This document shows, piece after piece, positions 1,214 through 18,199 of a stretch of DNA of 64,000 nt. This DNA comes from Thermoanaerobaculia bacterium (GTDB taxonomy: Bacteria; Acidobacteriota; Thermoanaerobaculia; Gp7-AA8): contig DATELQ010000048.1 in NCBI GenBank assembly GCA_035276475.1, forward strand, positions 87 to 64,086. Direction: 5' to 3'. Made by a program: the position numbers and the translations under genes. The notes below the pieces were generated by a model. That model was not told the DNA's origin. It made no database searches and saw nothing but the letters and a program-made list of their open reading frames with translations. Position 1 is the stretch's first letter; each line of letters opens with the position of its first letter.

Positions 1214-1914
1214 AGCGAGTACGTCGCCACCTGTGCCTCCGCGTCGCCGCGCAGGCCGTAGGCGATCACTTGGTACGTTCCGGGCGTCAGCAGGCGCGCT
1301 GGGACTTCGACGGTGAAGCTGTCGCTCTTCGGCCGGCGCAACTCGCGGCTCGACCAGACGCGCTCGTGCGATGGCGTGCGGATCAGATCGAGGCGGTATG
1401 TCTGGTAGTCGGTCAGGCCGACGATCGGCACGACGAGGAGGATGGCCTCGCCGGAAGCCCCGACCGCGGGCGGCGGTTCGGCAGGGCCGCGGTTGCCCTC
1501 GGGTCGCAGTACCGTCGCCTCCGGGAGGACGTGCGGCCGTAGCGACGCCGTGCGCGTCTGCCACAGCATGGCCCCGAAGACGATGGCGAGGGCTGCTGCC
1601 GCCGCGGCGGACCAACGCCAAAACTGCAGCACGCGCGCGCCGGCGGCGCGGGTGGCGCCGCGCAGAGCATTCCATTGACGCTCCACGACGTCGTCGGGAA
1701 GCTGCTCGTCTTCGGGAGGAAAAGGTGCGGCGTAGGCACGGGCGAGCTCCGGATAGGCGACGAGCAGTTGCTGCACGCGTTCCGCGTCTTCTTTCGAAAG
1801 TTTACCGGCCTCGTAGGCGAGGAGCTCCTCGACCGTAGGCGGCTCGCCGAGCCTCGCGCGGTCGTCGGCGAGCATGGCGTCGCGGACGGCCTGCCAGTCG
1901 GATCGTGTGATCAT
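1192..1914 (-). CDS. Membrane-spanning anti-sigma factor
   Basis: ATG at 1914 overlaps the sigma gene stop (ATGA). Short cytoplasmic N-domain, one TM (WSAAAAAALAIVFGAMLW), extracytoplasmic C-domain. Positioned directly downstream of an ECF sigma gene. Confidence 0.6.
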   Translation of the reverse strand: MITRSDWQAVRDAMLADDRARLGEPPTVEELLAYEAGKLSKEDAERVQQLLVAYPELARAYAAPFPPEDEQLPDDVVERQWNALRGATRAAGARVLQFWRWSAAAAAALAIVFGAMLWQTRTASLRPHVLPEATVLRPEGNRGPAEPPPAVGASGEAILLVVPIVGLTDYQTYRLDLIRTPSHERVWSSRELRRPKSDSFTVEVPARLLTPGTYQVIAYGLRGDAEAQVATYSLYVPGRR

Positions 1915-2453
1915 GGTTTGTCTCCGAGTTGCTCGCGGAGGGTACGTTTCGCGTCCCGCAGCCGCGATTTCACGGCATCTTCGGAGATGCCGAGGATTTT
2001 GGCGATTTCTTTGTAGGTACAATTTTCGAGCGAGAGGCGAAGGCACTCCCGCTGACCCGGTGGCAGCGACTCCACCGTCTTCCGTAATTTTTCCCGCTGC
2101 ACCTCGTCTGCCTGACGATCGGCATAGTCGGGCTCTTCGGGTGCGGCCGGATCAAGGCCCAGATCGGGATTATCGATCTCGACCAACGTCACGCTCCGCT
2201 TCTGCGTGTGCCGCGCGCGAACGTAATTGAGCAGGACCGTCCGAGCGATCGCGGATAGAAAGGGCCATTCATCGTCGTTGCGAATCTGTCCCATCCGTGG
2301 ATAAAGCCGCTTGAACGTGTCCTGAGCCAGATCGTGCGATTCGTCGTCGGAGACGCCGTTGCTCCGGAAATATCGCCAGACGCGCCCATAAGACTTTCGG
2401 TAAACCGCCTCGAAGCGCTCATCGTATGGGCCGTTGCCGTCTACAATGATCAT
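1911..2453 (-). CDS. ECF (sigma-70 family) RNA polymerase sigma factor
   Basis: Region 2 (ESHDLAQDTFKRLY) and region 4 HTH (CTYKEIAKILGISEDAVKSRLRDAKRTL). Start chosen at ATG 2453 (MIIVDGNGPY); the upstream part of the ORF is Arg-rich and implausible. Confidence 0.85.
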   Translation of the reverse strand: MIIVDGNGPYDERFEAVYRKSYGRVWRYFRSNGVSDDESHDLAQDTFKRLYPRMGQIRNDDEWPFLSAIARTVLLNYVRARHTQKRSVTLVEIDNPDLGLDPAAPEEPDYADRQADEVQREKLRKTVESLPPGQRECLRLSLENCTYKEIAKILGISEDAVKSRLRDAKRTLREQLGDKP

Positions 2454-2465: not shown

Positions 2466-5400
2466 ATGAAAGCCATTGCCACCGCCTGTGCTGTATTGCT
2501 GCTGGCAGGTGCCTGCAAACCTGAAGACACCAGCGGGGGCGGCGTGTGGGGGCGAACCGTCGAGCCGCGTTTGACGACGACGCGCTCGTGGCATGTCTGC
2601 ACGCCGGAATTATCGCCGGACCGCGCCGTCGCCCAGGCTCGATGCGCCGCGCCGCCGCTGCTGAAAGGTCGCTGCGACGACGTCGTCAATTCCTACGACG
2701 AGGCGACCGCGATGCTGGTGTCGCGTCCGCAGTGCACCGACGCGGCCATTGCGGCGCTGGAAAGGTTCTCCCGCGACGACGCGGCGGCGCTGAGCGACCT
2801 GGCCGCCGCGTATTACGTTCGCGCGCAGCGGAAAGACGATCCGGCGGATCTCCTCCTGGCCTTTGACGCCGCCCAACGCGCTGTGGCCATGAAGCCGCAG
2901 CCGCCGGGCGCGCAATTCAATGCCGCATTGATCCTCCAGGCGTTGTCGCTCAATGACGACGCCATCGACGCCTGGCAACGCGCCGCGGCCGTCGAGAAAG
3001 GAGAATGGGCGGATGAAGCCCGCGGACGTCACGCGGAATTGAAGCGCGCCATGACGCAAAACCAATGGCCGCAGGTCCGGGCTCAGATCGATGCTGCCCT
3101 CGACGCGCACGACGTGGTCAGCACGCGAAGCCTCATTGCCCTTTTTCCGGCGACTGCGCAGAAGCATTTCGAGGAGGACGTGATCCCTCAATGGGGAAAC
3201 GTCGCGCAGGTAACTACGTTCGCCGAGGCCTTGTCGCAATTCTTCAATGACAACTATTTTCGCGACGTTGCCGCGAAGATCGTCCATGCGCCGTCGCCGG
3301 CGTTGCGTGAGGGCCACCTCCGATTCGCGCAGGCTCGCGCCGCTGAAGCGTCACTCGGCCCTGGGACCGCCGCACCGCTTTACGAGCAGGCGGCACGGTT
3401 GCTGCGGGAGGCTGGAAGCCCGCAGCAATTGCTTGCCCGCATCGGCCATGCCGGACAAATCCCGTTCGTCACTGACCGTTACGAGCCCTCGCGCCGGGAG
3501 CTCGATGCCGTGGCGGCCGCGGGGCCGTCTTATCCGTCAGTCATCGCCCGTGTAGAGCTGAGTCGTCTCAACGTCGATCAATTCCTCGACCGTTACGACG
3601 CGCTGTTCCGCGCCTACGAAGCAGCGATGACTGCATATGGGCGGGTCGGGGATTGGGAAGACTGTGACGCCGCGAGAGCACGCGCCCTCAGTGCGATGAC
3701 GGTCGTGGGGCTCAAGGAGCGGGTCTGGCGCGAAGCGTTCGCCGCCGTACGCGACGCGCCGCGGCTGCAGGATTCGAAGACGCGGCACCTGCTCCTCGGC
3801 ACGGCCGCCAGAGCCGCGCTCAACCTCGGTTATCCGGAGTTGGCGTTGCGCTACCAGACTATCGCCGTCAATACCGCTCCGAACACCGCACACCTCGCCA
3901 TCGCCTTGTCCGAACGCGCGCTCATTCAACTCCGCCTGCAGCGCTATGACGACGCCCAGAGAGACCTCGATTCGGCCGTTCGCGCCAATAAGAAGCTCGT
4001 CGACGACAGCGCTCGCCACGTCGTGGAGGCCCGGCTGGTGGAGGTGCAAGGGGAGAGGACATTGCAGGTCGATCCTAAGCAGGCCGTGCAGACGTTCACG
4101 CAGGCCATCGACTTGGCCTCGAACGCGGAATACACGAGTTTCCGGGCCATGCTCTTTGCGCAACGCGCCGAGGCCTACCGCCGCAGCGGGCGGCTTGCCG
4201 AGGCCGAGGCGGACATGCGTCAGTCCCTCGCCCTATTGCACGGCGAAGAGGAAGGAATGCTCGGCGGGAGAAAACGGGGACAGGACGACGATCTCTGGAA
4301 CGCCTATTTCTCGCGCTTCGAAGAGACCTACGATCTTCTGATCCGGCAATTGATCGGTCAATCGCGCTTCGACGAAGCATTCCGCTATGCCGAGCGCGCC
4401 CGCGCCTACGAGCCGCTCGACCTCGTGCGCAAACTGCCGGCGGCGCCCAAGGCCTTTCGAGCCCTCGCGGCAGACCCCGATCATCTCGACATCGGGAAAT
4501 TGAGCGAGCAGTTGCCGCCGGGTACGTTTCTCATCGAATACCGCGTCTTCGACGATCGGACGTATGCGTGGATTCTCGGCCGTGGCCTCTTCACCGGACA
4601 GTGGCTGAAGGCGGGGAGCGGTGACGTGAAGCGCTGGACGAGCGCGCTACAGAACGGATCGAGCAACAAAGAAGCCTTCGAAGCCGCTCTCGAGCCGGCC
4701 TATGAGGCGCTTCTCAAAGGGCCGCTCGAGTCCATTGGCTCCGCGACGAGGATCGTCATCGTTCCGGACCGCCATTTGCGCGGTCTTTCCTTCGCGGCGC
4801 TGCGCAACCCCGACACGAAGCCGAAGCGCTATGTCATTGAAGACCGTGTCATATCGATGTCCGGCAGTGCGCTCCTGTATGTCTTTGCCCTCCTGCGCGA
4901 CCGCGACCTAGCGCCCGACACCTCCGCGCTCCTGGTCGCCGACCCGGCCTTCAATCAGCATTCGACGCTCGGACAAGGATGGCAGCGACTGCTGTTCGCG
5001 CGGAGGGAAGCGGAGCTGATCCGAGGTTTGTATGGGTCGCCGCAGATTCTCTCGGACAAGGCGGCCACTCCCGAGGAATTCCTCCGTTTGGCCGGGAATC
5101 GCGCCGTCATTCACATCGCCGCGCACGGCGTGGTCAATGGCGGCGCTCCGTCCCAGTCCTACCTTTTGTTCAATGGCGTGCTCAATGCCGAGATGCTCAT
5201 GAACGGACTGCACACCGACAGGACCCGTCTCGTCGTCCTCGGCGCGTGCAGCAGCGCGGGCGGACTGCCGGTCGGCGCGGAAGGCATCGCTCCGCTGGTC
5301 CGGCCGATCGTCGCCGCCGGCGTGCCCGGCGTCGTCGGCGCTCTGTGGGACATCAACGACGCCACGACGGCCGACCTTCTCGTGTCTTTTCATCGTCACT

Positions 5401-5573
5401 ATCGGCAGGGCGATGACGCGGCGACGGCGCTCCGGAAGGCGCAACTCGAGATGCTCCGGAGCGACAACCCCGGCAAGACGCCGGCGCGCATCTGGGCTCC
5501 GTTTCAGGCCATCGGCTACGCCTCTTCGCCCTTCGCATCGATGGGAGACATCACGAAGGAGAAACCACCTTGA
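2466..5573 (+). CDS. Exported lipoprotein with TPR-like helical repeats and a C-terminal CHAT (caspase-like) protease domain
   Basis: Lipobox at the N-terminus (MKAIATACAVLLLAGAC). Long Ala/Leu/Arg helical repeat region. C-terminal His/Cys dyad context HIAAHGV ... LVVLGACSSAGG, typical of CHAT. Confidence 0.85.
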   Translation: MKAIATACAVLLLAGACKPEDTSGGGVWGRTVEPRLTTTRSWHVCTPELSPDRAVAQARCAAPPLLKGRCDDVVNSYDEATAMLVSRPQCTDAAIAALERFSRDDAAALSDLAAAYYVRAQRKDDPADLLLAFDAAQRAVAMKPQPPGAQFNAALILQALSLNDDAIDAWQRAAAVEKGEWADEARGRHAELKRAMTQNQWPQVRAQIDAALDAHDVVSTRSLIALFPATAQKHFEEDVIPQWGNVAQVTTFAEALSQFFNDNYFRDVAAKIVHAPSPALREGHLRFAQARAAEASLGPGTAAPLYEQAARLLREAGSPQQLLARIGHAGQIPFVTDRYEPSRRELDAVAAAGPSYPSVIARVELSRLNVDQFLDRYDALFRAYEAAMTAYGRVGDWEDCDAARARALSAMTVVGLKERVWREAFAAVRDAPRLQDSKTRHLLLGTAARAALNLGYPELALRYQTIAVNTAPNTAHLAIALSERALIQLRLQRYDDAQRDLDSAVRANKKLVDDSARHVVEARLVEVQGERTLQVDPKQAVQTFTQAIDLASNAEYTSFRAMLFAQRAEAYRRSGRLAEAEADMRQSLALLHGEEEGMLGGRKRGQDDDLWNAYFSRFEETYDLLIRQLIGQSRFDEAFRYAERARAYEPLDLVRKLPAAPKAFRALAADPDHLDIGKLSEQLPPGTFLIEYRVFDDRTYAWILGRGLFTGQWLKAGSGDVKRWTSALQNGSSNKEAFEAALEPAYEALLKGPLESIGSATRIVIVPDRHLRGLSFAALRNPDTKPKRYVIEDRVISMSGSALLYVFALLRDRDLAPDTSALLVADPAFNQHSTLGQGWQRLLFARREAELIRGLYGSPQILSDKAATPEEFLRLAGNRAVIHIAAHGVVNGGAPSQSYLLFNGVLNAEMLMNGLHTDRTRLVVLGACSSAGGLPVGAEGIAPLVRPIVAAGVPGVVGALWDINDATTADLLVSFHRHYRQGDDAATALRKAQLEMLRSDNPGKTPARIWAPFQAIGYASSPFASMGDITKEKPP

Positions 5574-6652: not shown

Positions 6653-7051
6653 GTGCCTGTCCTCCCTTTCGCCATGAATCGAATTGCATTGGCAGTCTGC
6701 CTCTTCGCGGCCTTCTGTGCGCCGTCGCCGCGCGGCGAGCGCATCGCCGCGGCGTCGCTGCTCACGGCACATTGCGCCACGTCACGCCTGACGAAGTGGA
6801 ACATCCGCGGCCGCGCCGCCGGCGCCGACTGCAACGTTCTTCTCGTCGAGACCACTATGGTCCTGGAAGACTCGCTGGTGGAGGCCATTCACTACGGCAG
6901 CGGTGCCTACGCCGTGGTCGACGGCGGCGTGCGCCGCTTCACGCGAGAGCGCGCGTTCCGCGGTGTGGTTTACCGCGACCGCACCGGCCGCGTCTGGAGC
7001 TACGGCGATCTCACGCAAGCGGAAGCGGAGGAACTGCAGCCATGCCGCTGA
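6653..7051 (+). CDS. Small secreted hypothetical protein
   Basis: GGAGG about 10 nt upstream of GTG 6653. Signal-peptide-like N-terminus (NRIALAVCLFAAFCAPS). Overlaps the next gene by 10 nt. An alternative ATG lies at 6674. Confidence 0.5.
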   Translation: MPVLPFAMNRIALAVCLFAAFCAPSPRGERIAAASLLTAHCATSRLTKWNIRGRAAGADCNVLLVETTMVLEDSLVEAIHYGSGAYAVVDGGVRRFTRERAFRGVVYRDRTGRVWSYGDLTQAEAEELQPCR

Positions 7052-9153
7052 AGCGGATCGTCCTCGTACTCGCGCTGGTCGCGCAAACCGCGGCGGCGGC
7101 GCCGCATCGACGCGCGCTCCTCGTCGGCATCAATGACTACTCGGCGTCGCATCTGACGCCGATCCGTGCGCCGGCGTCCGGGCGCGACTGGCCGAACCTC
7201 GCGGGCGCGGTGAACGACACCGCCGCGCTGCGCGAGCTGCTCGTGCTGCTGCACGGCTTCGACGCGCGCGACGTCGTCACGCTGAACGACCAGTCGGCGA
7301 CGCGTAGCGCCATCCTCGGTGCCGCGAATCGTCTCGCCGCGACTGCGGCAAAAGACGACATCGTGCTCTTCTACTTCGCCGGCCACGGCTCGCAGAGGAG
7401 CAACTCGAAGTCCGACGAGCCCGACAAGCTCGACGAGTCGATCGTGCCGGCCGATTCGCGCCGCGGCGCCGACGACATCCGCGACAAGGAGCTCCGCCGC
7501 GTGTTCAACGCCATCCTCGACCGCGGCGCGCACCTGACCGTAATCATCGATGCCTGTCACAGCGGCTCCGGGGCGCGCGGGCTCCTCACGCTCACCCAAC
7601 CGCGCGGCATCCGCGCCGACTTGCGCGACGTCGCCGACGGCGGCGACTACGGTCCGCGCCCGGAGAACCGCGGCGCGCTCGTCATCAGCGCCGCGCACGA
7701 CGACGAAGAGGCGCGTGAAGTGCGCGACGGCCGCGAGACGATGCACGGCGCCTTCACCTGGGCCTGGATGCGCGCCATGCGCGACGCCACGGCGGACGAG
7801 ACGGCGATGGCGACGTTCACCCGTGCGCAGGCGCGGCTGCGTGCGGAGATGCCGTTTCAGAATCCCGTAATCGCCGGCGACGCCGCGCAGCGCAACACTC
7901 CGTTCCTCGGCACGCACGCGGAGGCCGCACGCACGGCCTTCGCCGTCGAGCGCGTCCGCGGCGACGGTACGGCTGTCATCTCCGGCGGCTGGGCGCACGG
8001 GATCACCGTCGGCAGCGAGCTACGCGTCGCCGGCGACCGCATGCAGCCGCCGCTCGTCGTCACGAGTCTCCTCGGCCTCGGCCGCTGCGAAGCGCGCATT
8101 CCGGCGGCGGCGCACGTGCGTAGCGGAATGCTGCTGGAGCTCGTCGGCTGGGCCGCGCCGCCGCCGCGCGTGTTGCGCATCGCCATGCCGCACGCCGACA
8201 TCGACGTCGCCGCATTCGCACGCCGCGTCGCCAAGACAGGCGTGACGTTGATTGACGATCCGACGAAGCGCACACCCGATCATGTGTTGCGCTGGGCGGG
8301 CGGGTGGTGGGAGCTCGTCGATCGCGCCGGCCGTGCAACGTCATTCGACTCACTCGCCCGACTGCACGGCTCCGTCTTCGTGCAACTCCCTGCACCGACC
8401 GAGCTGGCGAAGGCCATTGCCGGTCCCGCCGTCCTCGACGTCGTCGAGCGCGCCGAAGATGCGGACTACGTGCTCGTCGGCCGCTTCGTGCGTAATCACC
8501 TCGAGTACGCGTGGGTGCGGCCGAACGCGCAGCGCGGCATCTCCACGCTGCCGCTGCGCAGCGTCTGGCTCACCGCCACGTTCGACATCGCGCACGTCCT
8601 GCAACACCGCGCGCTCGTGCTGCACAAGATCGCCGCGTGGAGCTTTCTCGAGTCGCCGGGACGGTGGCCGTATCACCTCGTGCTGCACGGCGACCGGGAG
8701 GTCACCGATAAAGTCGCGGGCGGCGAGACGTACACGCTCGAGCTCCGCGCCACCGCACCGCTGCGCAGCGTTCCTCGGCGCCACCTCTACGTCTTCACGA
8801 TCAACCAGTACGGCGAATCGACGCTCCTCTTCCCGCTGAGCGGCTCGGTGGAGAACCACGTCCCGCTCGCCGGCGCGCCGCCCGTCATCCCGCTCCAGGC
8901 GAAGTTCCAGATTGCGAAGCCCTACGGAGTCGACACGTACTTCCTCCTGACGACGGACGAGCCGCTCACGAATCCGTGGATCCTGGAGTGGGAGGGCGTG
9001 CGCAGCGCGCCGCCGCCCACGAAGACCGCGCTCGAGCGCCTCCTTGCGCTCACCAGCTCCAGCGAGCGCGCCGCGCGCATCGTCACGCCGGCGACGTGGT
9101 CGATCGAGCGCATCGCCATCGAGTCCGTGCCGCCGCGCCGCCACAAACGCTGA
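7042..9153 (+). CDS. Secreted caspase-family (peptidase C14 / metacaspase-like) protein with long C-terminal extension
   Basis: Signal peptide (MPLKRIVLVLALVAQTAAAAP). RALLVGINDY, catalytic contexts FYFAGHGS and VIIDACHSGSG. The C-terminal region (YVFTINQYGESTLLFPL) resembles the DUF4384-type domain often fused to bacterial caspases. Confidence 0.85.
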   Translation: MPLKRIVLVLALVAQTAAAAPHRRALLVGINDYSASHLTPIRAPASGRDWPNLAGAVNDTAALRELLVLLHGFDARDVVTLNDQSATRSAILGAANRLAATAAKDDIVLFYFAGHGSQRSNSKSDEPDKLDESIVPADSRRGADDIRDKELRRVFNAILDRGAHLTVIIDACHSGSGARGLLTLTQPRGIRADLRDVADGGDYGPRPENRGALVISAAHDDEEAREVRDGRETMHGAFTWAWMRAMRDATADETAMATFTRAQARLRAEMPFQNPVIAGDAAQRNTPFLGTHAEAARTAFAVERVRGDGTAVISGGWAHGITVGSELRVAGDRMQPPLVVTSLLGLGRCEARIPAAAHVRSGMLLELVGWAAPPPRVLRIAMPHADIDVAAFARRVAKTGVTLIDDPTKRTPDHVLRWAGGWWELVDRAGRATSFDSLARLHGSVFVQLPAPTELAKAIAGPAVLDVVERAEDADYVLVGRFVRNHLEYAWVRPNAQRGISTLPLRSVWLTATFDIAHVLQHRALVLHKIAAWSFLESPGRWPYHLVLHGDREVTDKVAGGETYTLELRATAPLRSVPRRHLYVFTINQYGESTLLFPLSGSVENHVPLAGAPPVIPLQAKFQIAKPYGVDTYFLLTTDEPLTNPWILEWEGVRSAPPPTKTALERLLALTSSSERAARIVTPATWSIERIAIESVPPRRHKR

Positions 9154-9249: not shown

Positions 9250-9891
9250 ATGGGTTTTTATCTGCGCAAAAGCGTCGCGATCGGGCCATTCCGATTCAAC
9301 CTCTCCGGCTCCGGAGTCGGCATGTCCGTCGGCGTGCGCGGACTACGCGTCGGCAGCCGCCCGCGCGGTAACTACGTCCGCATCGGCCGCGGCAGCGTGT
9401 ATTACCAGCAGAACTTTGGCGGGCGCACGCCCGAACGGCCGCTGCAGGAGATCGCCTCGGCGGACGCCGCGCAGATCGTCGACTCCTCATCCGAACAGCT
9501 GGTGGCCGAGCTTCGCGACAAGCAACGAATGCTCCGCCGGATGCCGCTGGTTGCGATGGGCTCGGTGATCGTGATGCTGTTCGCCGCAGCGCTTCCGGCG
9601 TGGGCGTTCGTGACGCTGGCGATCATGGCGATCGTTGCGATCGCCGCAGCGCATCGCGGCGACGTGCTGCGCAAAACCTCCGTGATCGTCGACTACACCT
9701 GGCGCTACGTCAACCGCAGCGGCGGCCCCGACCGCCGCTTCAGCAACAACCCGCGCATTCCCGTCTGCCTCTACGACGAGTTGCACTTCCGCACCGCCTC
9801 CGGCCTCCACGACGTCGTACAGCTCTCGCGCAGCGGCTTGGCCGAGGGGTTTGCGGCGGCCGTGCGGCACCTCGGCGCGGTCGTCAAATGA
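9250..9891 (+). CDS. DUF4236-like membrane protein
   Basis: N-terminus MGFYLRKSVAIGPFRFNLSGSGVGMSVG matches the DUF4236 signature as I remember it. Two predicted TM helices (LVAMGSVIVMLFAAALPAWAFVTLAIMAIVAIAAA). Confidence 0.65.
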   Translation: MGFYLRKSVAIGPFRFNLSGSGVGMSVGVRGLRVGSRPRGNYVRIGRGSVYYQQNFGGRTPERPLQEIASADAAQIVDSSSEQLVAELRDKQRMLRRMPLVAMGSVIVMLFAAALPAWAFVTLAIMAIVAIAAAHRGDVLRKTSVIVDYTWRYVNRSGGPDRRFSNNPRIPVCLYDELHFRTASGLHDVVQLSRSGLAEGFAAAVRHLGAVVK

Positions 9892-12631
9892 GCCCGTCGT
9901 CGTAGCGCCTAAGCAGCGCGTCCACAATGCCGCGGTCGACCGGCGTCAATCCATTGCCGTCGCGCAGCGAGCGTAAGCCGCGCGCGACGTCAGCCGCCAC
10001 GGTCAGCCGCGGCGCGAGCGCGTCGGCGACGTTGCGGCGCAGCGCGGCGGCGTCGGCGGCGGAGAGGCGCTTCGCTGCGGCGAGCGTCGTGTCGCCGAGG
10101 GTGGCGGTGGGGATGCCGACGGCGCGGCAGAGGAGGACTTGCTCGTAGGCGGCGCGCACGGCACCGGTCACGGCGAGATCGGTCGGCAGCAAGTCGGGGA
10201 ACGCCTCGGCGGCGCGATTCGCGGCGGCGTCGTAGTGCGTGCGCATGTAGTCGATCTGGCCGATCACGTACGCGGGATAGTGCAGCGTGCGCGTCATCAC
10301 GTGCACGCGCAGCGGGTCGGGCGACCCCTTCACCTGCGCCTCGGCGAAGCGCTCGCGGAGCTGGCGCAGCCAGCGCACGTCGCTCTCGTCCGTCCACAGC
10401 GTCGCATCGCGCTGCATCGCCTTCTGCGCGTCGGCGTCGTCGTCGCGCAGCTCGATGAGCGGCGCGGCGAGGTCGGCAAGGCGTTTGAGCCGGCGGGCGA
10501 GACTCGCGGGCGCGGCGACGCTCGTCGCCGCCGCGGCCACCGTCATCGCGCGGAACGGTGCGAACGCCGACGCCGCGTACGCCGCGACGCGCGCGCGCAG
10601 CTCGTCGAGCGTCATGTGGCGCGACGCCGCGCGGCCGATCGGAAAGTCCCGCACGAACGGCTTGCGGTCCTCCGCCGTCCTCTCGTACCAGGCATCGACT
10701 TCCGTCTCGTCGACGAGCGCGATCGTCAGTCCGCCGTCGACGAGCGGCATCGTCGCCGTCGCCGCGGCGAGCTGTTCGAGCTCCTCGCGGCGCGCGCGCA
10801 GCGCAGCCTCCGCTTCCTTCGCCGACTCGTGTAGGCGGCGGAACACGGCCAGCGTGGCGCGGCGGTGGGCGACGTCGTGCTCGAACTGCAGCTCGTCGTT
10901 GTACGCGGCGTTCTTCGCCTTGTCGGTCGCGTCGATCGATCCGAGAAGGCGGGCCAGCGTCTCGCGCGCGTTGCGCACCAGCGGCGCGATCGCCGTTGCG
11001 TACTTGAACGCAGCGTGCGCGCCGAAGGCGATGAGAAAGATCGTCAGCGGCCAGCGCACTTCGATCTCGAACGCGACCTTCAGCGCGACGATCGCCGCCA
11101 CGCCGCCGGCGGCAACGCCTAAGCGGCGCCACAGCCAGGCGCGGCGCGTCTCGAGCGCCTCGCGCAGGGCCTGCTCTGCGCGCGGCTTCTGCGCGAAGAG
11201 CTCGCGGAGATGCTGCTCCTTCGCCTCGCTCTCGCCGGCGAGCCGCGCCGCCTCGGCCTCGCGCGCGGCGTTGCGCGCCGCGTTGTTCTCCGCCTCCTCG
11301 GCGAAGACGATGTCGGGGAGCTGCTGCAGCAGCGCCGCGCGCTCGCGCTCGAGCTCCGCGAGCTGCTCCGCCGCTCCTTCGGCAGCGACCGTCTCGGCGA
11401 CGAGCTTCTGATCGACGAGCATCGTCGAGAGCTCGCGCACGCGCTTCCGCGCAGCGGCGCTGGCGGCGGTGTTCGGCGTGAAGCGGACGCGCGCGTCGAG
11501 AGCCGCCGTAGCCGCGCGGATCTCCGTCACTACGTTGCGCGGCGCGGCGTCGGCGTCGTCGCGCACGTCGGGCAGCGGATCGACGAGCGCTTCGGCGAGC
11601 GCGATCGCCGGCGCGTAGCCGTCGCAGTCGAGCGCCTCGTCGATCGTGCGCGAGAGCAGCGCCGTCGTCGCCGCCGTTGCCGCGTCGCGCTGTTCGTCAA
11701 GCGTGCGGAGGTTCTTCAGATGCACCGAGTCGCGGTGCTGCTGCAGCTCGGCGCGCGCGCCGGCGATCAGCTCCTCCGCGCTGCGGGTCTTCTCTCCGAC
11801 AATCGTCTTCGGCTGAAAGCGGCGGAAGAGCGACTCGCCGCCGATGCGCGACAGCGGCAGCGCGAGCTCCTCGCCGACGATGAACTGTTTCGCCAGTAGA
11901 GGCGCGCGGCGTGCGCCCTCCGCGCCTCCGCACAACCTCCCAAACAACTCGGCGGCGAAGCGCGTCTCCAGCCGCTGCAGCGCGGCGTCACGTGGAAAGA
12001 TGAGCTCCGCGCAGCCGAACGAGCTGAACGCCGGCGACATCCCCCGCGGGTGCACGCCGGGCAGCGCGCCGCTCATCTCCGGCTCGAACGTCAGCATCCC
12101 GGCGACCGCGTCGGCGTAGGCGTCGAGCGCCGTGGCGAGCGTGCCGAACTTCACGCGCGCGCTGTTCGTCGCGTCGAGGAGCCACGCTTCGTCGAACGGC
12201 TTCGGATCCGCGCCGCTCAGTGCCTTCAGCACTCCGTAAGCCGCGGCGTAGTCGGCGTCCGTCGTCGCGCCGGCCACTTCCGGCAGCACGCAGAGCACCT
12301 CGATCGAAAAGTACGACGCCAGGCGGCGCATCTCGTAAATCGTGCGGATCTCGGCGAGCGTCCCGAGGAGCGCCGCGCGCGCGTCGCCGGCGGCGGAGAC
12401 GACCACGAGCACGAGCTCGCGCGCGCTGATGTCGTCGCGCGAGCGGAGCGCGCTGTCGGGGCGCTGGCGCTGCACGTGAATCGAGTGGATCGCTTCGGCC
12501 AGCACCGCGGCGCGGCGCCACTGCACCAGATCATCGAGACCATACGCCGCCGCCACGCGCCGCTGCACCGCCTCCGCCAGCGCAGCGGCGTCGTCGTCGA
12601 GCGCGAGAATCGTCACCGGCTTGAGCATCAC
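9884..12631 (-). CDS. Degenerate tubulin-like paralogue with central TM hairpin and Ala-rich coiled regions
   Basis: Start (GTG 12631 or ATG 12628) overlaps the upstream stop. The N-terminal ~230 aa align block by block with the upstream tubulin-like protein, but the GTP-binding motifs are replaced (ALDDDAAAL, SAAGDARA). TM hairpin GVAAGGVAAIVALKV...WPLTIFLIAFGAHAAF. Confidence 0.75.
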   Translation of the reverse strand: MMLKPVTILALDDDAAALAEAVQRRVAAAYGLDDLVQWRRAAVLAEAIHSIHVQRQRPDSALRSRDDISARELVLVVVSAAGDARAALLGTLAEIRTIYEMRRLASYFSIEVLCVLPEVAGATTDADYAAAYGVLKALSGADPKPFDEAWLLDATNSARVKFGTLATALDAYADAVAGMLTFEPEMSGALPGVHPRGMSPAFSSFGCAELIFPRDAALQRLETRFAAELFGRLCGGAEGARRAPLLAKQFIVGEELALPLSRIGGESLFRRFQPKTIVGEKTRSAEELIAGARAELQQHRDSVHLKNLRTLDEQRDAATAATTALLSRTIDEALDCDGYAPAIALAEALVDPLPDVRDDADAAPRNVVTEIRAATAALDARVRFTPNTAASAAARKRVRELSTMLVDQKLVAETVAAEGAAEQLAELERERAALLQQLPDIVFAEEAENNAARNAAREAEAARLAGESEAKEQHLRELFAQKPRAEQALREALETRRAWLWRRLGVAAGGVAAIVALKVAFEIEVRWPLTIFLIAFGAHAAFKYATAIAPLVRNARETLARLLGSIDATDKAKNAAYNDELQFEHDVAHRRATLAVFRRLHESAKEAEAALRARREELEQLAAATATMPLVDGGLTIALVDETEVDAWYERTAEDRKPFVRDFPIGRAASRHMTLDELRARVAAYAASAFAPFRAMTVAAAATSVAAPASLARRLKRLADLAAPLIELRDDDADAQKAMQRDATLWTDESDVRWLRQLRERFAEAQVKGSPDPLRVHVMTRTLHYPAYVIGQIDYMRTHYDAAANRAAEAFPDLLPTDLAVTGAVRAAYEQVLLCRAVGIPTATLGDTTLAAAKRLSAADAAALRRNVADALAPRLTVAADVARGLRSLRDGNGLTPVDRGIVDALLRRYDDGLI

Positions 12632-15375
12632 GACAGCGTCTCCATCCGCCGCACGTAGTCCTCGATGGCCACGACTTCGAGCTCCACCTGATCCTTCACC
12701 GCCGCGTCGGCCACGCCGGCCATCTGCTTCGACAGCGAGAGCGTGTACTCCTTCAGGATCGCCGCCGCGCGCGCCGCCCCTTCGCGCGTGACGATCGTGT
12801 CGATGGCCTCCTCCGCCTCAGCCACCAGCTCGCGGTTCTTCTCGAACGCCGCGTAGGCCGGCACGCGGCCCTGGCCGAGGCGGATCAAGCCGTTGTCGAC
12901 GCGCCGGCCGCTCTTCGACTTCATCGAGTACCACGCGCCGTCGCGCTTGATGATCGCGAACGGCTCGGGCGCCTGCGCCAGCGCGAACCAGCGCAGCGCT
13001 TCGCCGTCGCCGCTGCGCGGGATCAGATTCGGGATGTCCTGCCAGCGCTTGTCGACGTGATTCGAGATCACCTTGTTCGGATCGAGATAGGCGCGCTCCA
13101 TGTCGTCGATGTCCGCGAGTGCAAAGAGCGGGATGCCGGTCTTCACCTTGAACAGCAGCACGCGGTGGGCGTCGTGCGTCGACACCATCGACGGCCGCGT
13201 CGCCCCTTTCGGCACGCCCGTTTCGTACTTCGACTCCTTGAGGATCGTCGTGTCGGCGTCGGCGACGCCGTAGTGGTAGAACTCGTTGATCACCGACTGA
13301 TTGACGACCGGGATCTTGCCGGCGTCGTAGCGCCAGAGCGGTACGGCCAGGTTGTCGACGCGCTTGAGCTCCTGCGCCACGGCCTCGGCGGAGAGGCGCC
13401 CCAGGATGTCGTCCATCGTCAGCGACGTGAGCGGCGCGTAGCACGCCTGCACGAACTGGCGGACGTCCGCGTACACCTCGTCGGCGCGCAGCGTGGCCCA
13501 CTGCGCGAGCGAGCCGTTGTGGTGGTCGGCGTACCACTTCACGAAGTCCTCGCCCGTGACCTGCGGCCGCTGCGCGCCGGGATCGAACGACACCGTCTGC
13601 TCAAAGAGGCGCGACGCGCCGCGCGGATTCGTGGCGTCGAGGTACTGCTGCTCGAACTGCTTGCGCGCGGCGTTGAGGTTCTCGCGGATGCGGTAGCACG
13701 ACTGCAGGATCGACTGCGTGTGCGCGTGGAGGACGGAGTAGAGCTCCGCGGCCTTCTCCATCCGCGCGACCTTGATCGTCAGCTCCGTCTCGCGGTCGGC
13801 GAGGCCGCCGTAGACCTCGCACGCCGTCTTGATGCGCGACTCGCGCTTGAGGAACGCGCCGACGGCCTCGCCGATCTGGTCCTCGGCCGGCTTGTAGCTG
13901 AGCGCCTTGAGCTTCGCGCGCTCCTCCTTCGCCTCGCCGTCCATCATGTTCTGGTACCACTCCAGCTTCGCCTGCAGCTTCTCGAAGAAGCGCTCCGCGC
14001 GCGTGAAGCCGTTGTTGCGGTTCACGGCGGTCTCCCACCACGCGTTAATGGCGGCGACGGAGTTGTCGCGCAGGGCCTCGAAGTTCTTCGCAATCGCCTG
14101 CGCGATCTGCCGCTCCGCGCGCGAGCGGTGCGACGTGTGCAGGTTCTTGATCTCCGTGAGCGCCTTGTTGTCGAACTTGAGCTGGGCGAGCGACATCGGG
14201 AAGCGGAGCTGACCGCCGCCTTCGCGCTGGCTCAGAGACTCGATGACCTGATCGGCGTTGTCTTCGCGGAGGCGGTTGCCGTCGATGAAGCGCTGCACCT
14301 CCACCTCGACCTCGGCGTCGACGACAGCGCCGTTGAGCAGGTCGTCGTTGACGAGCCGCTTCGCGTCCTCCCACATCAGCGGCTCGAAGCTCGGCATCAC
14401 CAGCGAGGCCACGCCGAAGCTGCAGTACTGCGGCGAGCGGCCCTTCACGCGGCCGGCCGTGGCGATCTGGGTCTTGATGTTGTCGACCGCGTTCGCGCTG
14501 TCGGCGCCGATCTGCGAGCCGATCTGCACGTACATGCCGTCGGCGATGAGGCCGTAGAGGTCCTGCTGCTCGCTGACGACGCGGCCCTGTTCGTTGATGT
14601 TGTCGATGAGGTAGACGAGGTCGAACGGCGGCCGCGCCACCTCGACGCGGCGCACGCCGTAGTCGATGGTGAAGCTGCCCTTCATCGTCGAGAGGTATTC
14701 GATCTCCTTCAGTGCGCCGTACGCGTTCGGCTTCACCAGCGCGACGCCGGCGTAGCGCGTGAAGATGCCGGGGAGGAGGAGCACGCCGGTGAAGTTCGAC
14801 TGCTCGTCGCTGCCGATGATGTCGCGGGCCATGAAGGCGATGTCGAGGAACGTGCCGCTGCCGGTGCCGCCGGCGACGCTGCCGACGATGTGCACCTCCA
14901 CGCCGGCGCGCGTGGAGACCTGGAACTGATCGGCGTACATCTGCTTTTGGTTGCGGATGTTGCGCACGTCGTCGACGGCGCGGCGGATGCGGCCGTAGAC
15001 GTCGTTCGCGCGCGCGAAGAGCGCCAGGCGGCCGCGCGCCCGCACCTGTCCGGCGCCGGCGATGATCGACTGCGTCGGGATCTGCGGCGGCCACCACTCG
15101 TCGATGTGCGGATTGCCACCGTTCACGAGGGCGGCAGGATGGCCGACCTGCAGGACGAAGGTCTCGTTGTGATCGAGCTTGCCATCGACGGCCGCGGTCT
15201 CCGTGGCCGCGCCCCCCTCGGCGTTCTCGGTCGTGTCGATGGAGAGGAAGCTGATGATCGGCGGCACGAAGCCGTAGGCGTCGATGAAGCGCTTCTTGAG
15301 CTTGAGCAGCGCGCCGTAGCCGGTGCCGCCGAGGCCGATGACGACGGTGGGACGAAAAACGACGTTGTTTTTCAC
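12628..15375 (-). CDS. Tubulin/FtsZ-superfamily GTPase (Tubulin_2-like), large C-terminal helical region
   Basis: GTG 15375 overlaps the vWA gene stop (GTGA). Motif IGLGGTGYG (nt 15313..15336) and an exact tubulin signature AGGTGSG (nt 14854..14874). The longer ORF to 15777 overlaps the vWA gene and was rejected. Confidence 0.85.
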   Translation of the reverse strand: MKNNVVFRPTVVIGLGGTGYGALLKLKKRFIDAYGFVPPIISFLSIDTTENAEGGAATETAAVDGKLDHNETFVLQVGHPAALVNGGNPHIDEWWPPQIPTQSIIAGAGQVRARGRLALFARANDVYGRIRRAVDDVRNIRNQKQMYADQFQVSTRAGVEVHIVGSVAGGTGSGTFLDIAFMARDIIGSDEQSNFTGVLLLPGIFTRYAGVALVKPNAYGALKEIEYLSTMKGSFTIDYGVRRVEVARPPFDLVYLIDNINEQGRVVSEQQDLYGLIADGMYVQIGSQIGADSANAVDNIKTQIATAGRVKGRSPQYCSFGVASLVMPSFEPLMWEDAKRLVNDDLLNGAVVDAEVEVEVQRFIDGNRLREDNADQVIESLSQREGGGQLRFPMSLAQLKFDNKALTEIKNLHTSHRSRAERQIAQAIAKNFEALRDNSVAAINAWWETAVNRNNGFTRAERFFEKLQAKLEWYQNMMDGEAKEERAKLKALSYKPAEDQIGEAVGAFLKRESRIKTACEVYGGLADRETELTIKVARMEKAAELYSVLHAHTQSILQSCYRIRENLNAARKQFEQQYLDATNPRGASRLFEQTVSFDPGAQRPQVTGEDFVKWYADHHNGSLAQWATLRADEVYADVRQFVQACYAPLTSLTMDDILGRLSAEAVAQELKRVDNLAVPLWRYDAGKIPVVNQSVINEFYHYGVADADTTILKESKYETGVPKGATRPSMVSTHDAHRVLLFKVKTGIPLFALADIDDMERAYLDPNKVISNHVDKRWQDIPNLIPRSGDGEALRWFALAQAPEPFAIIKRDGAWYSMKSKSGRRVDNGLIRLGQGRVPAYAAFEKNRELVAEAEEAIDTIVTREGAARAAAILKEYTLSLSKQMAGVADAAVKDQVELEVVAIEDYVRRMETLS

Positions 15376-16490
15376 AGCTCCTCCTCGACAGGTGTCGCGG
15401 TCCGCTCGTGACCGACTCGGTTGAAGCGCAGCTTGGCGTCGCCGATCGAGATGGTGTCGGCGTCGTAGAGCGCGCTGGTGGGCGTTTCGATGTCGTTGAC
15501 GCGCAGAGAGCCGCCGCTCGCCGCGATCCACACTTCTTTGCTGCCGTTGCGCCGCTGGACGAAAAGGCGCGCGTCGCTGCCCGCGAGTGCCTCGGGCGGA
15601 ACAACGGCGCTCAGCGCGATCTCGGTCGCGGCGAGACGCGGCAAGCCGACGAACGCCGCCTCCGGCGCGACGTGCGGCTGCAGGATCTCGAGCTCGCCTT
15701 CGAGCTGATGATTCTTGCGGTGGCGCGACCACGCCAGCCAGGCGATGGCGGCAACGATCGGCAGCAGCACGAGCCAACGCAGCGGCGATGATTTGGGGAT
15801 GGGCGCCGCCGGCGGGATGGCGATGGGCGGCGGCTCGGGCTTCGGCTCGGGCAGGGAGTTGCGGATTCGCTGCGCGACCTCGGCGATCGCCTCGCGCGTC
15901 GGCGCGCGAAGTACGGTGGCGTGCTCGGCGCGGCGCGCGAATTCGTCGAGCTGCGTCTCGTGCTCGTGCTGGCCCATCGAGACGAAGAAGACGTACGTGC
16001 CGTCGACGCGGTCGAGGTTCGCCAAGATCGGCACCGGGTGCGCGATGCCGCGCACGTCCTCCTTGCCGTCGGTGAAGAGGACGACCGACTGCACGCGCGT
16101 CTTGTCGCCGCCGGCGCGCGCCGCGGCCGCGCGATCGAGTCCCTTCTGAATGGCCAGGCCGAGGTGCGTGCGGTTGCCGTTAGCCTCGAGCGCGTCGACG
16201 ATGCTGATCAGATCGTCGCGCGCTTTGCCGCGGATCTCCGTCGACGTGTGCAGGTGCGCCTCGGAGTCGAAGGTGTAGACCGCGGCCGTGTCGCCGTCGC
16301 TGGCCTCGCGCACGAATGTGGCGATGCTCTCCTTGACGTCGGGAAAGATGTTCTTGCCGCCGACGCCGCGCATCGACTTCGACGTGTCGACGAGGAAGAT
16401 CCAGTCGACCGCGCCGCGCGGCTGCGCGCGGGCGGAGACAACAATTGGAAAGAGGAGGAGTACGGCCGCTGGCACGATTCGGCGTCTCAT
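15372..16490 (-). CDS. vWA domain - TM - FHA-like domain protein
   Basis: Signal peptide (MRRRIVPAAVLLLFPIVVSARA). MIDAS motif in IFLVDTSKSM. Pro-rich linker, TM (WLVLLPIVAAIAWLAW), and a C-terminal ~100 aa beta-rich FHA-like region. The FHA assignment is the least certain part. Confidence 0.8.
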   Translation of the reverse strand: MRRRIVPAAVLLLFPIVVSARAQPRGAVDWIFLVDTSKSMRGVGGKNIFPDVKESIATFVREASDGDTAAVYTFDSEAHLHTSTEIRGKARDDLISIVDALEANGNRTHLGLAIQKGLDRAAAARAGGDKTRVQSVVLFTDGKEDVRGIAHPVPILANLDRVDGTYVFFVSMGQHEHETQLDEFARRAEHATVLRAPTREAIAEVAQRIRNSLPEPKPEPPPIAIPPAAPIPKSSPLRWLVLLPIVAAIAWLAWSRHRKNHQLEGELEILQPHVAPEAAFVGLPRLAATEIALSAVVPPEALAGSDARLFVQRRNGSKEVWIAASGGSLRVNDIETPTSALYDADTISIGDAKLRFNRVGHERTATPVEEEL

Positions 16491-16517: not shown

Positions 16518-16540
16518 ATTTGTGGCGCGTCGCCACAAAT
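16518..16540. promoter_or_regulatory. Perfect 10-3-10 inverted repeat in a divergent promoter region
   Basis: ATTTGTGGCG cgt CGCCACAAAT. Lies between the vWA operon start (16490, minus) and the caspase gene start (16568, plus). Confidence 0.35.
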
Positions 16541-16567: not shown

Positions 16568-18199
16568 GTGAAGCGCTGGGTCCTCGCAGGCGTGCTTCTC
16601 TGTATCGCAACCACGACGGTCGTCGTGCCGTTCGCCTGGCGCGGCGTGCGCGGTGTGCACGTGCTGGCCGAGGAGGGGGCGAGCACGCAGTTCGATCCGC
16701 GGCAGTCGGCGGCGCTCTTTGTCGGCGTGAGCGACTTCGACGCCGCGGCGGAGGTGCCGTTCGCGGTCGACGACGCGGTCGATCTCGCGCATGCGTTCAC
16801 GCTCGTGCGGCGCTGCGGCCTCGTGCCGCCGGGCCGCGTCATCCTCATCCTGTCGAAGCGCTCTCCGGCGAAGAAGGAGTCGGGCGCGCGACTGCGCGAG
16901 TTGCGCGAGGCCGGCGTCGACATCCGTTACCAGGCCGACGTCGAGCACGTCCGCGCGGCGTTGCGCGAGCAGGCGGCGCGCGCCGGCCGCGACGGCGTGC
17001 TGATCGTCGCGCTGGCCGCGCACGGTCTTCTGCACGAGGGCAATGGCTACATCCTCGGCGCGTCGTCCTCGGTCCGCAATCTCTCGTCGATGCTGCCGAC
17101 GACAGAGTTGCTCGAGACGATCGCGTCGTCGAACGCACAACGCTCGCTCGTCTTCATCGACGCCTGCCGCGAGCGGATGACGACCGGCACGCGCTCGGTG
17201 CTGGCGAGCGCGATGAGCGCCGCGCCGCTGATGCATCGCATCGCCCACACGCGCGGGCAGGCGGTGTTCTACGCCGCCGCGCCGGGCAAGTGGGCGTACG
17301 ACGATCCCGAGGGGCGCAACGGCGTGTTCACGGAGGCGGTGATCGCCGGGATCAGTTGCGACGCCGCGAAATCACGCGGCGTGGTGACCGCGGAGACGCT
17401 CGCCGGCTTCGTCGAGCGCTACGTGCAAACGTGGATCCGCAAGAACCGCGATCCGGAGGTCGGCTCGGCCACGCAGTGGACGATGGACGGCGAGGTGCGG
17501 AACATGCCGCTGGCGCAGTGCGACGGCCCTCCTGTCGGCGGGCCCGATCGCGCGTCGTGGGAAGGGCCGATCTTATGTGCGTTCGAAAAGAACGAGCTGC
17601 TCTGGCAGCACGATGTCGGCAGCGCGATCGCGCACGCTGAAGTGGTGGACCTCGATGCCGACGGCTGGCGCGAAGTGGTTTGCGCGACGCGCCACGGCAT
17701 CACCGCGCTCGACGATCGGGGCAAGCCGCTCTGGTCCGCGCGCGAGTCGATGACGCTGACGAGCTGCCTAGTCGACGAATTCGTCTACCAGCAACGTACG
17801 AAGCACGTGGTCGCGCTGTGGAACGGCGAGCACGCCTCGCGCCTCGCCGCCTACCGCCCCGACGGCAAGCTCCTCGGCGCCTTCGACGACGACCACCGCA
17901 TCGACCGCGTGGTCTTGGCCCGCCCCACCGCCCGCCACGGCCCGAAGCTCGTCGTCACCGCCGGCAAGACGCTGATGCTCTTCGATTCGCGGCACCTCGC
18001 CGCCGGCGAGCCGCTCTGGCGCGGCCGCGTCGTGACGCGCAGCGCCATCGAGTCGCTGCAGATCGCCGACGGCAACGGCGACGGCAGGAGCGACATCGCC
18101 GTGACGACGGAGAGCGGCGCGACGGTGTACGTCGACTTCAACGGGCACGCCGTCCGCTCGACGCCGGGCGCGCGCTTCGAGCGGCTGCCGAGGCGGTGA
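16568..18199 (+). CDS. Membrane-anchored caspase-like (C14) protein with FG-GAP/beta-propeller-like C-terminal repeats
   Basis: GTG 16568 gives an N-terminal TM (VKRWVLAGVLLCIATTTVVVPFAW). His/Cys contexts IVALAAHGLL and LVFIDACRE. Repeats DLDADGWREVV and ADGNGDGRSDIAV. The track ORF begins at TTG 16520, inside the inverted repeat. Confidence 0.75.
   Translation: MKRWVLAGVLLCIATTTVVVPFAWRGVRGVHVLAEEGASTQFDPRQSAALFVGVSDFDAAAEVPFAVDDAVDLAHAFTLVRRCGLVPPGRVILILSKRSPAKKESGARLRELREAGVDIRYQADVEHVRAALREQAARAGRDGVLIVALAAHGLLHEGNGYILGASSSVRNLSSMLPTTELLETIASSNAQRSLVFIDACRERMTTGTRSVLASAMSAAPLMHRIAHTRGQAVFYAAAPGKWAYDDPEGRNGVFTEAVIAGISCDAAKSRGVVTAETLAGFVERYVQTWIRKNRDPEVGSATQWTMDGEVRNMPLAQCDGPPVGGPDRASWEGPILCAFEKNELLWQHDVGSAIAHAEVVDLDADGWREVVCATRHGITALDDRGKPLWSARESMTLTSCLVDEFVYQQRTKHVVALWNGEHASRLAAYRPDGKLLGAFDDDHRIDRVVLARPTARHGPKLVVTAGKTLMLFDSRHLAAGEPLWRGRVVTRSAIESLQIADGNGDGRSDIAVTTESGATVYVDFNGHAVRSTPGARFERLPRR

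Follow-up and report, generated by a model that had tools for sequence, protein, structure and literature searches.

The DNA analyzed here, a stretch of 64,000 nucleotides from a Thermoanaerobaculia bacterium (contig DATELQ010000048.1, G+C content about 68%; hereafter the window), contains a cassette of three consecutive minus-strand genes, designated G1, G2 and G3. The proteins most similar to those of the window carry the names Thermoanaerobaculia or Acidobacteriota. The central gene G2 encodes an FtsZl1 protein, that is a member of the Pfam family Tubulin_2 within the tubulin/FtsZ superfamily. Over its entire length, G3 is paralogous to G2 but has diverged: its guanosine triphosphate (GTP) loops have degenerated, and it is predicted to be inserted into the membrane. 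G1 should expose a vWA domain with a metal ion-dependent adhesion site (MIDAS) on the outer side of the inner membrane and keep a small FHA-like domain in the cytoplasm. The FtsZl1 family, its linkage to vWA genes and the cassette itself, which was listed in 2010, were already known. New here are the identification of the third gene as a membrane-inserted pseudo-tubulin paralogue, the FHA-like character of the G1 tail and a linkage to proteases that is specific for Acidobacteriota. We give an even chance to a mechanism in which G2 and G3 form a GTP-regulated assembly on the inner membrane that remodels the membrane and that G1 couples to an extracellular ligand.

G2 (12628..15375, 915 aa, GTG start; all features of the three genes lie on the minus strand) matched the Pfam model Tubulin_2 (PF13809) over residues 11-329 (14389..15345) with an E-value of 8.3e-63 and 213.2 bits, the gathering cutoff being 27. 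PF13809 is the model of the family described as FtsZl1 ("FtsZ-like 1") by Makarova and Koonin (2010, Biol Direct 5:33, PMC2875224), and the same equation was made in a 2023 study. The tubulin-like GTPase domain contains the T1 loop GLGGTGYG (residues 14-21, 15313..15336) and the T4 loop AGGTGSG (14854..14874), which is an exact tubulin signature. From Acidobacteriota to Nostocales, the T1 residues GLGGTG, a T3-like AGAGQ motif, the T4 loop AGGTGSG, N261 and the group N295/D298/N299 are invariant. By analogy with FtsZ, the nucleotide pocket appears to be intact and the sequence ANAVDNIK, which harbors the invariant N295/D298/N299, is a candidate T7 loop. Judged by these motifs, G2 looks like an active GTPase. 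The AlphaFold model of the protein (predicted local distance difference test, pLDDT, 72) revealed an alpha/beta head, a confidently modeled helical (coiled-coil) stalk comprising residues 405-582 (13630..14163, pLDDT 85-95) and a C-terminal domain. In a Foldseek search with this model, CetZ (3zid; E=1.4e-3, target-normalized TM-score 0.46), the phage protein TubZ (3v3t; E=1.3e-2, target-normalized TM-score 0.50) and gamma-tubulin (7m2z; E=3.4e-2) were retrieved, each with a probability of 1.0. The tubulin-type matches spanned approximately 310 columns, their target-normalized TM-scores ranging from 0.38 to 0.50. Both the glycine-rich motifs and the tubulin-like nature of G2, which a preliminary description of the locus had proposed, were confirmed by these data. 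At residues 807-859 (12799-12957), the model PF21096 of the RecA C-terminal domain scored just under its cutoff (26.8 bits; cutoff 27), and the same match is present in the precomputed Pfam annotations of numerous G2 orthologues.

G3 (9884..12628, 914 aa) did not match any Pfam family above threshold. Its score against Tubulin_2 was 12 bits (E=0.12), so that by the gathering threshold it is not a member of this family. Weak Tubulin_2 matches were obtained with 23 of 32 G3 orthologues, and a cyanobacterial orthologue reached an E-value of 7.7e-4. The relationship of the two genes emerged when alignments covering three lineages were compared by hhalign. Residues 66-236 of G3 aligned with residues 152-349 of G2 (probability 97.7%, E=2.4e-12, 165 columns), and the C-terminal domains aligned as well (G3 635-816 and G2 602-787; probability 79.9%, E=1.4e-5, 171 columns). 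The pseudo-tubulin domain assigned on this basis comprises residues 1-235 (11924..12628). At the position of T1, G3 reads ALDDDA (ALDPHS in cyanobacteria) while G2 reads GLGGTG, and at the position of T4 it reads SAAGD-AR instead of AGGTGSG. The glycines of both loops were lost from G3 in all three lineages examined. Since no lineage has kept the glycine-rich loops, G3 can be regarded as an ancient pseudo-GTPase. By contrast with these vanished loops, a loop T(F/A)EPExSGAL at the T7-equivalent position is nearly invariant across lineages. The AlphaFold model of G3 (pLDDT 85, predicted TM-score 0.63) retrieved dozens of alpha- and beta-tubulin chains in a Foldseek search (probability 0.97-1.0, E about 1e-2, TM-score about 0.3, about 290 columns).

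The model of G3 further contains a long antiparallel helical hairpin (residues 419-622, 10763..11374) composed of helices 419-520 and 525-622, each arm thus having approximately 100 residues. The tip of the hairpin (residues 502-551, 10976..11125) is hydrophobic according to hydropathy profiles of the window protein and its orthologues. Two hydrophobic segments, 502-524 and 530-548, are framed by Arg-rich flanks, and their position is conserved in all lineages. Because Arg-rich stretches occur on either side of the hairpin, it can be argued that both globular ends of the protein are cytoplasmic. The preliminary description had envisaged G3 as a tubulin-like partner of G2 with a transmembrane hairpin. 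Both parts of this prediction held, with the modification that the partner is a pseudo-GTPase and not a second GTPase.

G1 (15372..16490, 372 aa) starts with an ATG codon that is shared by the public gene call. Exact-sequence look-ups retrieved no database record for G2 or G3. The protein possesses a Sec-type signal peptide (residues 1-24, ...VVSARA/QP, 16419..16490) with a hydrophobic stretch at residues 4-23, followed by a vWA domain at residues 31-205 (15876..16400), which was detected by the Pfam models VWA, VWA_2 and VWA_3. The match to VWA had an E-value of 3.5e-17 and 63.6 bits (cutoff 23.8). The MIDAS motif D35-T-S-K-S39 (16374..16388) is an intact DxSxS, and DTS[KQAGR]S was found in all G1 orthologues scored. 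A Kyte-Doolittle scan revealed a transmembrane helix at residues 234-255 (15726..15791) that is immediately followed by the basic stretch SRHRKNH. The hydropathy of the orthologues likewise indicated a single transmembrane helix at the equivalent position. Due to the signal peptide, the single helix and the basic residues behind it (positive-inside rule), the vWA domain is likely to reside outside and the tail inside, a topology that had already been suggested for this protein.

The cytoplasmic tail of G1 is approximately 110-115 aa long, and residues 261-365 (15396..15710) were assigned to an FHA-like domain by sub-threshold profile matches. The Pfam models FHA and MU2_FHA matched three and five of 15 G1 orthologues, respectively, each time with E-values of about 0.02-0.04, which is below the threshold of significance. 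A family profile built from 18 diverse tails and compared with the sequences in PDB produced 11 matches, ten of which are FHA domains (E=0.08-1.1), among them Rv1747, GarA/Rv1827, Mb1858 and FhaA/TB39.8. Only the C-terminal half of these domains was covered, the aligned region of Rv1747, GarA and FhaA being xNGTxVNGxxvxxxxLxxGDxixiGxxxlxF. Like these proteins and YscD/EscD of type III secretion systems, G1 appears to have a small beta-rich cytoplasmic module beside a transmembrane helix. YscD/EscD are single-pass proteins with a cytoplasmic FHA-like and a periplasmic domain. Within the tail family, L3, G5, P12, L23, L49 and G67 are invariant. A phmmer search with the tail against 1.84 billion representative proteins yielded 46 relatives and did not retrieve any canonical FHA protein. 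Apart from a few large proteins of repetitive sequence, the relatives were C-termini of proteins the size of G1. A homologue search seeded by the tail profile recovered fragments of G1 orthologues and nothing else; one of these fragments carries the name "FHA protein" given by the Joint Genome Institute.

In the mechanism to which we assign an even chance, G3 would be embedded in the inner membrane while its two globular domains face the cytoplasm. By a tubulin-type contact or a contact of the C-terminal domains it might recruit G2, so that the two proteins form a membrane-bound heterodimer or co-polymer. Binding and hydrolysis of GTP by G2 would control this assembly. The ectodomain of G1 might bind a metal-dependent ligand or partner and couple it to the G2/G3 assembly, with the cytoplasmic tail of G1 touching either G2 or G3. 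As a result, the inner membrane would be reshaped or reorganized locally. In its layout of a GTPase, a helical stalk and a membrane hairpin, the cassette recalls dynamin-like and mitofusin-type pairs. In Acidobacteriota, exported caspase and CHAT proteases would act in the compartment of the vWA ectodomain. If true, the cassette would represent a tubulin-fold counterpart of the dynamin-like and mitofusin machines, and a prokaryotic heterodimer of an active and an inactive tubulin tied directly to the membrane.

In tubulin, the T7 face of one subunit completes the active site of the other subunit. Alpha/beta-tubulin and BtubA/BtubB are, like G2 and G3, adjacent tubulin-fold paralogues of which one is hydrolysis-competent, and the same arrangement might apply here. 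However, alpha-tubulin still binds GTP while G3 is devoid of the GTP loops. Moreover, G2 and G3 each have approximately 600 extra residues, G3 is predicted to be membrane-inserted, and sequence similarity to canonical tubulins is limited to the signature motif. Bacterial dynamin-like pairs and mitofusins resemble the cassette in being encoded by operon pairs and in combining a GTPase head with a long helical stalk and with a hairpin or paddle in the membrane, both ends being cytoplasmic. In addition, the stalk of G2 matched the structure of Campylobacter DLP1/2 (5oxf) in the Foldseek search. The GTPase folds, tubulin on the one hand and dynamin/TRAFAC on the other, are unrelated though, and the likeness is therefore purely architectural. 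CetZ, TubZ and PhuZ comprise the best structural matches of the G2 GTPase domain (3zid and 3v3t, TM-scores 0.46-0.50), but they lack the stalk, the C-terminal domain, a vWA partner and a membrane-anchored paralogue, and there is no link to G2 at the level of sequence profiles.

Several findings weigh against the proposed membrane-remodeling assembly. The connection of G2 to canonical tubulins exists only at the level of folds or of profile-profile comparison. Searches of PDB by hmmsearch with full-length and N-terminal G2 profiles did not detect any tubulin or FtsZ; the best matches, a pseudoazurin and a response regulator with E-values of about 0.1, were rejected as noise. The hhalign comparison of the N-terminal G2 profile with E. 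coli FtsZ aligned only 24 columns around T4 (E=0.027). The fold-level E-values of G2 and G3 are modest (1e-3 to 1e-2) and were obtained with predicted models as queries. The region of the candidate T7 loop is modeled poorly, with a pLDDT below 50 over residues 287-323. In G3, the hairpin of the window protein is only weakly hydrophobic and contains Lys and Glu; the Kyte-Doolittle values of its segments are 1.5-1.8, compared to 2.4-3.2 in Blastocatellia and Nostocales. It is conceivable that due to this composition the membrane insertion of G3 is conditional. As to G1, the window protein had no match to Pfam FHA at E<=0.01, and for any single sequence the assignment of the tail to FHA is below significance. 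In the alignment with Rv1747 and GarA, K, G or S stand in place of the Asn with which the NGT motif binds phosphothreonine, and no GR or SxxH was found that could be aligned to the phosphothreonine site in the N-terminal half. The tail thus differs from Rv1747, GarA and FhaA by its E-values (0.08-1.1), by the unconserved Asn, by the unaligned N-terminal half and by the absence of a kinase from the cassette. It is FHA-like but not proven to be an FHA domain, and phosphothreonine binding is probably absent. The preliminary description, which had assigned a C-terminal FHA-like module to G1, is backed by the concordant sub-threshold matches and lacks a significant FHA match in the protein itself, while its other statements on G1, i.e. 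the signal peptide, the vWA domain, the intact MIDAS and the single transmembrane helix, proved correct.

A further objection concerns the ability of FtsZl1 proteins to form polymers. The published link of the family to FtsZ and tubulin is based on an HHpred E-value of 1.4e-5 for Huta_2051, and neither the T6-H7-T7 elements nor the C-terminal domain of FtsZ were recognized in FtsZl1 (PMC2875224), which speaks against the proposed assembly as well. For this reason the authors of 2010 and a review of 2011 doubted that FtsZl1 proteins polymerize, and the review stated that their function is unknown. G2 might therefore be a non-polymerizing GTP switch or scaffold that is kept at the membrane by G3 in a fixed heterodimer and relays an external signal from G1 to targets further downstream, without any remodeling. 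In line with this alternative, G3 cannot bind GTP via T1 and T4, which would limit a polymer to special geometries, and the approximately 600 residues of extra domains on G2 and G3 could block longitudinal contacts. On the other hand, Foldseek aligned about 300 columns of both proteins with complete chains of tubulin, TubZ and CetZ, suggesting that more than the nucleotide-binding half has been retained. Besides, the invariant N295/D298/N299 loop of G2 and the conserved EPExSG loop of G3 are located where T7 would lie. We regard a pure switch as rather unlikely.

The distribution of the cassette was studied by a scan of one genome per species, which revealed 128 relatives of G2; 80 loci from three lineages were kept. 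G2 identity amounts to 76-92% within Thermoanaerobaculia, 52-56% in Blastocatellia and Pyrinomonadaceae, and 40-43% over the full length in Nostocales. In essentially all of these loci with enough flanking sequence, G1, G2 and G3 follow each other in this order on one strand, and a G1 orthologue is situated directly upstream of G2 in nearly all of the 80. The trio is consequently conserved in other genomes, in Thermoanaerobaculia and other Acidobacteriota as well as in Nostocales. G2 is always the most conserved member whereas G1 and G3 share approximately 50-60% identity within the class. The values for G1, G2 and G3 are 61, 83 and 56% in one related locus (L002) and about 42, 42 and 25% in Nostoc. 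This excess of conservation fits a catalytic core with adaptor partners. Outside Thermoanaerobaculia, the flanks of the trio are unrelated housekeeping genes, and the flanks in Nostocales and in locus L028 are unrelated as well, which argues for a self-contained cassette. In Dulcicalothrix desertica PCC 7102 (locus L054, 9986-12715), the open reading frame of the G2 orthologue ends at 12292 (768 aa) while the protein match runs to 12715; a frameshift or a sequencing error is possible.

The three genes are coupled, as had been noted, by overlaps of the type GTGA and TGATG, which were verified by the coordinates and the sequence at both junctions. The TGA stop codon of G1 is overlapped by the GTG start codon of G2 at 15375 (ctGTGAaa, 4 nt), and GAGGAGGAG is located just 5′ of this GTG. 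The stop codon of G2 and the probable ATG start of G3 at 12628 overlap in TGATG. A GTG one codon 5′ of this ATG would generate an alternative GTGA overlap, but as the G3 orthologues begin with MLKP (the N-termini being MLKP or MPKP), the ATG is favored. The 4-nt overlap of G1 and G2 was present in 23 of the 26 Thermoanaerobaculia-type loci in which it could be scored. In the other lineages the two genes do not overlap but are separated by gaps of 35-135 nt. A promoter search did not reveal any sigma-70-like promoter, and shuffled sequence contained terminator-like sites at least as often.

The cassette has been on record for some time. FtsZl1 and its operons with vWA genes were predicted computationally by Makarova and Koonin (PMC2875224), who also proposed a role in membrane remodeling; the statement in the preliminary description that tubulin-like families other than FtsZ had been noted beside vWA genes is hereby confirmed. 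Additional file 5 of that study lists the trios of Nostoc PCC 7120 and of Ava and marks the third gene as "coiled-coil" and no more. The genes described here are orthologous to alr2042 (vWA, 608 aa), alr2043 (FtsZl1, 910 aa) and alr2044 (1015 aa) of Nostoc PCC 7120 and to Ava_4733-Ava_4732-Ava_4731. In Planctomycetes, FHA proteins and kinase-fused FtsZl1 genes adjoin each other (PMC2875224). What our trio has in common with the FtsZl1 genes of the 2010 account is the score of 213 bits to the Pfam model, the tripartite architecture, which for G2 and G3 was seen in the AlphaFold models, and the adjacent vWA gene, which encodes a signal peptide, a transmembrane helix and an intact MIDAS and overlaps G2 by 4 nt. 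Absent from that account are the paralogy and the hairpin of the third gene, an FHA-like tail on the vWA partner and the linkage to caspase and CHAT genes in Acidobacteriota. In the literature searched, no mention of alr2042, alr2043, alr2044, Ava_4731 or Ava_4732 and no experimental study of FtsZl1 was found. Few branches of the tubulin/FtsZ superfamily have diverged as far as FtsZl1, whose function has been in question since 2010. The locus and its orthologues define a minimal, portable system of three genes, a sensor or anchor on the outside, a conserved GTPase and a membrane copy without GTP motifs. The rather vague prediction of membrane remodeling is thereby made experimentally concrete, the more so as the genetically tractable Nostoc/Anabaena PCC 7120 has the same cassette.

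The membership of G2 in the FtsZ/tubulin superfamily could also point to a cell-division or cell-shape system which replaces or supplements FtsZ. However, FtsZl1 normally co-occurs with a conventional FtsZ, the distribution of the cassette is patchy, as illustrated by the mere 46 relatives of the G1 tail in the protein set mentioned above, and no linkage to division or cell-wall genes was observed in any locus inspected. A function of this kind is very improbable.

The most serious alternative is a conflict system mediating immunity or programmed cell death. According to this scenario, an invader or damage would be sensed by the vWA ectodomain or by the parts in the cytoplasm, the G3 hairpins would be clustered by a GTP-dependent assembly of G2 and G3, and the inner membrane would be permeabilized or depolarized in the manner of an abortive-infection effector, with caspase and CHAT proteins serving as co-effectors or trigger in Acidobacteriota. 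Kaur et al. (2020, eLife 9:e52696) described tubulin-vWA modules of Firmicutes and Actinobacteria that are embedded in GAP1-N2 DO-GTPase conflict systems. Such systems occur preferentially in multicellular bacteria, and some of them contain SLATT pore effectors with two transmembrane helices. That related modules have been read as conflict systems and not as housekeeping devices counts against the membrane-remodeling assembly too. Coiled-coil-fused tubulin proteins, two of which are encoded per locus in Firmicutes, and a membrane protein with an extracellular vWA domain are features shared with our cassette. By contrast, the trio in the window and in Nostocales is not accompanied by an adjacent DO-GTPase, GAP1 or FNIII-repeat protein, three genes being sufficient. 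Pfam scans of the flanks of the trio in the window and in loci L054 and L028 revealed neither a zinc-ribbon P-loop DO-GTPase nor GAP1 nor FNIII, and effector-associated domains were likewise missing from the window in the Pfam and NCBIfam searches. NCBIfam did not yield anything informative for G1, G2 and G3, and none of the three proteins had a match in PADLOC-DB 2.0.

In favor of a conflict system, the stalk and tip of G3 resemble the ClyA-family alpha-pore-forming toxins MakA, AhlB and SmhB (Foldseek probability 0.8-0.96), and the weakly hydrophobic, charged hairpin of the window protein would suit a conditional insertion. Long helical hairpins match such toxins generically, though, and so does G2, which has no hydrophobic tip. 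Comparisons of the G3 hairpin with known effectors possessing two transmembrane helices (PycTM, SLATT, Holin-X) resulted in weak, mixed and sub-threshold Pfam matches, and these candidates were rejected. The patchy occurrence of the cassette, with full-length relatives in Nostocales that are 40-43% identical to those of Acidobacteriota and have unrelated flanks, is reminiscent of conflict systems. However, G2 is unusually conserved, and within the class the cassette looks vertically inherited.

Further evidence bearing on a conflict system came from the genes surrounding the trio. According to the preliminary description, the operon is bracketed by three clan-CD proteases. All three are real, since Pfam identified a CHAT domain (E=6.9e-52) and two Peptidase_C14 domains (E=2.6e-22 and 8.2e-13), but the bracketing by caspases is specific for Acidobacteriota and not part of the core cassette. 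The caspase gene that is divergent from G1 (16568..18199, plus strand) is present in a public gene call and encodes a protein with an N-terminal membrane anchor, a Peptidase_C14 domain and an FG-GAP propeller. Among 19 Thermoanaerobaculia loci whose flanks were long enough, approximately 16 had a homologue of this gene within 10 kb of the trio, ten of them upstream and divergent and others downstream. As it stays nearby despite its changed position while the wider flanks are not conserved, a functional link between caspase and trio within Acidobacteriota is suggested. The best NCBIfam match of the caspases, "caspase, EACC1-associated type", would also suit a conflict system. PADLOC assigned the flanking caspases and CHAT to the generic "caspase" and BovA models and to no others, and no caspase or CHAT gene was found in the flanks of the Nostocales loci examined. 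A conflict system appears possible to us, albeit unlikely.

On the opposite side of the trio, an ECF (extracytoplasmic function) sigma factor gene (1911..2453, minus strand) lies beside a gene for 240 aa (1192-1914). It is followed on the plus strand by genes for a CHAT lipoprotein (2466..5573), for proteins of 352 aa (5570-6628) and 132 aa (6653-7051), for an exported caspase of 703 aa with a signal peptide (7042..9153) and for a DUF4236 membrane protein (9250..9891). According to public gene calls and the sequence, the genes from CHAT to DUF4236 constitute a plus-strand operon with overlapping or near-overlapping junctions that converges on G3. Altogether, the genes between 1911 and 9891 give the impression of a second system, a proteolytic module that is exported and controlled by extracytoplasmic stress. 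Each of the three proteases appears to be exported and would then be located where the vWA ectodomain is. In many Thermoanaerobaculia loci (L003, L005, L008, L010, L017, L021, L024 and L026) a DUF4236 gene abuts the 3′ end of G3, at about 15.4-16.1 kb (about 6.2-6.7 kb in L005). There it mostly has the orientation of the trio, like a fourth gene, while it is inverted and placed after a caspase gene in the window and in L001.

In integrins, an FG-GAP propeller and a vWA domain are paired in the head. The FG-GAP part of the caspase (16568-18199) and the vWA domain of G1 (15876-16400) are both predicted to be periplasmic, and an integrin-like pairing of the two is an idea. Carried further, the system might be an integrin-like outside-in device. 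A ligand or the action of a protease on the vWA domain would be transmitted through the FHA-like tail to the pair of an active tubulin and a pseudo-tubulin, whose GTP-driven assembly would insert the G3 tip into the inner membrane or cluster it there and thus act as a membrane-permeabilizing or membrane-severing effector for regulated cell death or immunity. The exported caspases of Acidobacteriota, one of them FG-GAP-fused, would be the triggers. We consider this elaboration doubtful.

The divergent intergenic region of 77 bp between G1 and the caspase gene contains in its middle a perfect 10-bp inverted repeat, ATTTGTGGCG and CGCCACAAAT separated by 3 nt (16518..16540), which may be a candidate operator or a hairpin of the 5′ untranslated region. 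The repeat is absent from the 80 related loci, and if three mismatches were allowed, matches to it occurred in the window at about chance frequency. Rfam detected two tRNA genes in the window and nothing else. A tRNA-Asp(GTC) gene (19083-19159, minus strand) is located approximately 0.9 kb past the caspase/FG-GAP gene, and a tRNA-Phe(GAA) gene lies at 58649-58724 (plus strand). A role of the adjacent tRNA as an island marker was considered and dismissed; since related loci have different tRNA genes or none nearby, the tRNA is not a conserved integration site. Farther downstream, an open reading frame of 1712 aa (21020-26158, plus strand; 1708 aa in the public gene call) had no Pfam or NCBIfam match. 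It is followed at 28134-38076 (plus strand) by three tandem HlyD-family genes and genes for a MacB/FtsX-type permease, a radical SAM/SPASM enzyme and two M16 peptidases, which resemble a peptide maturation and export cluster.

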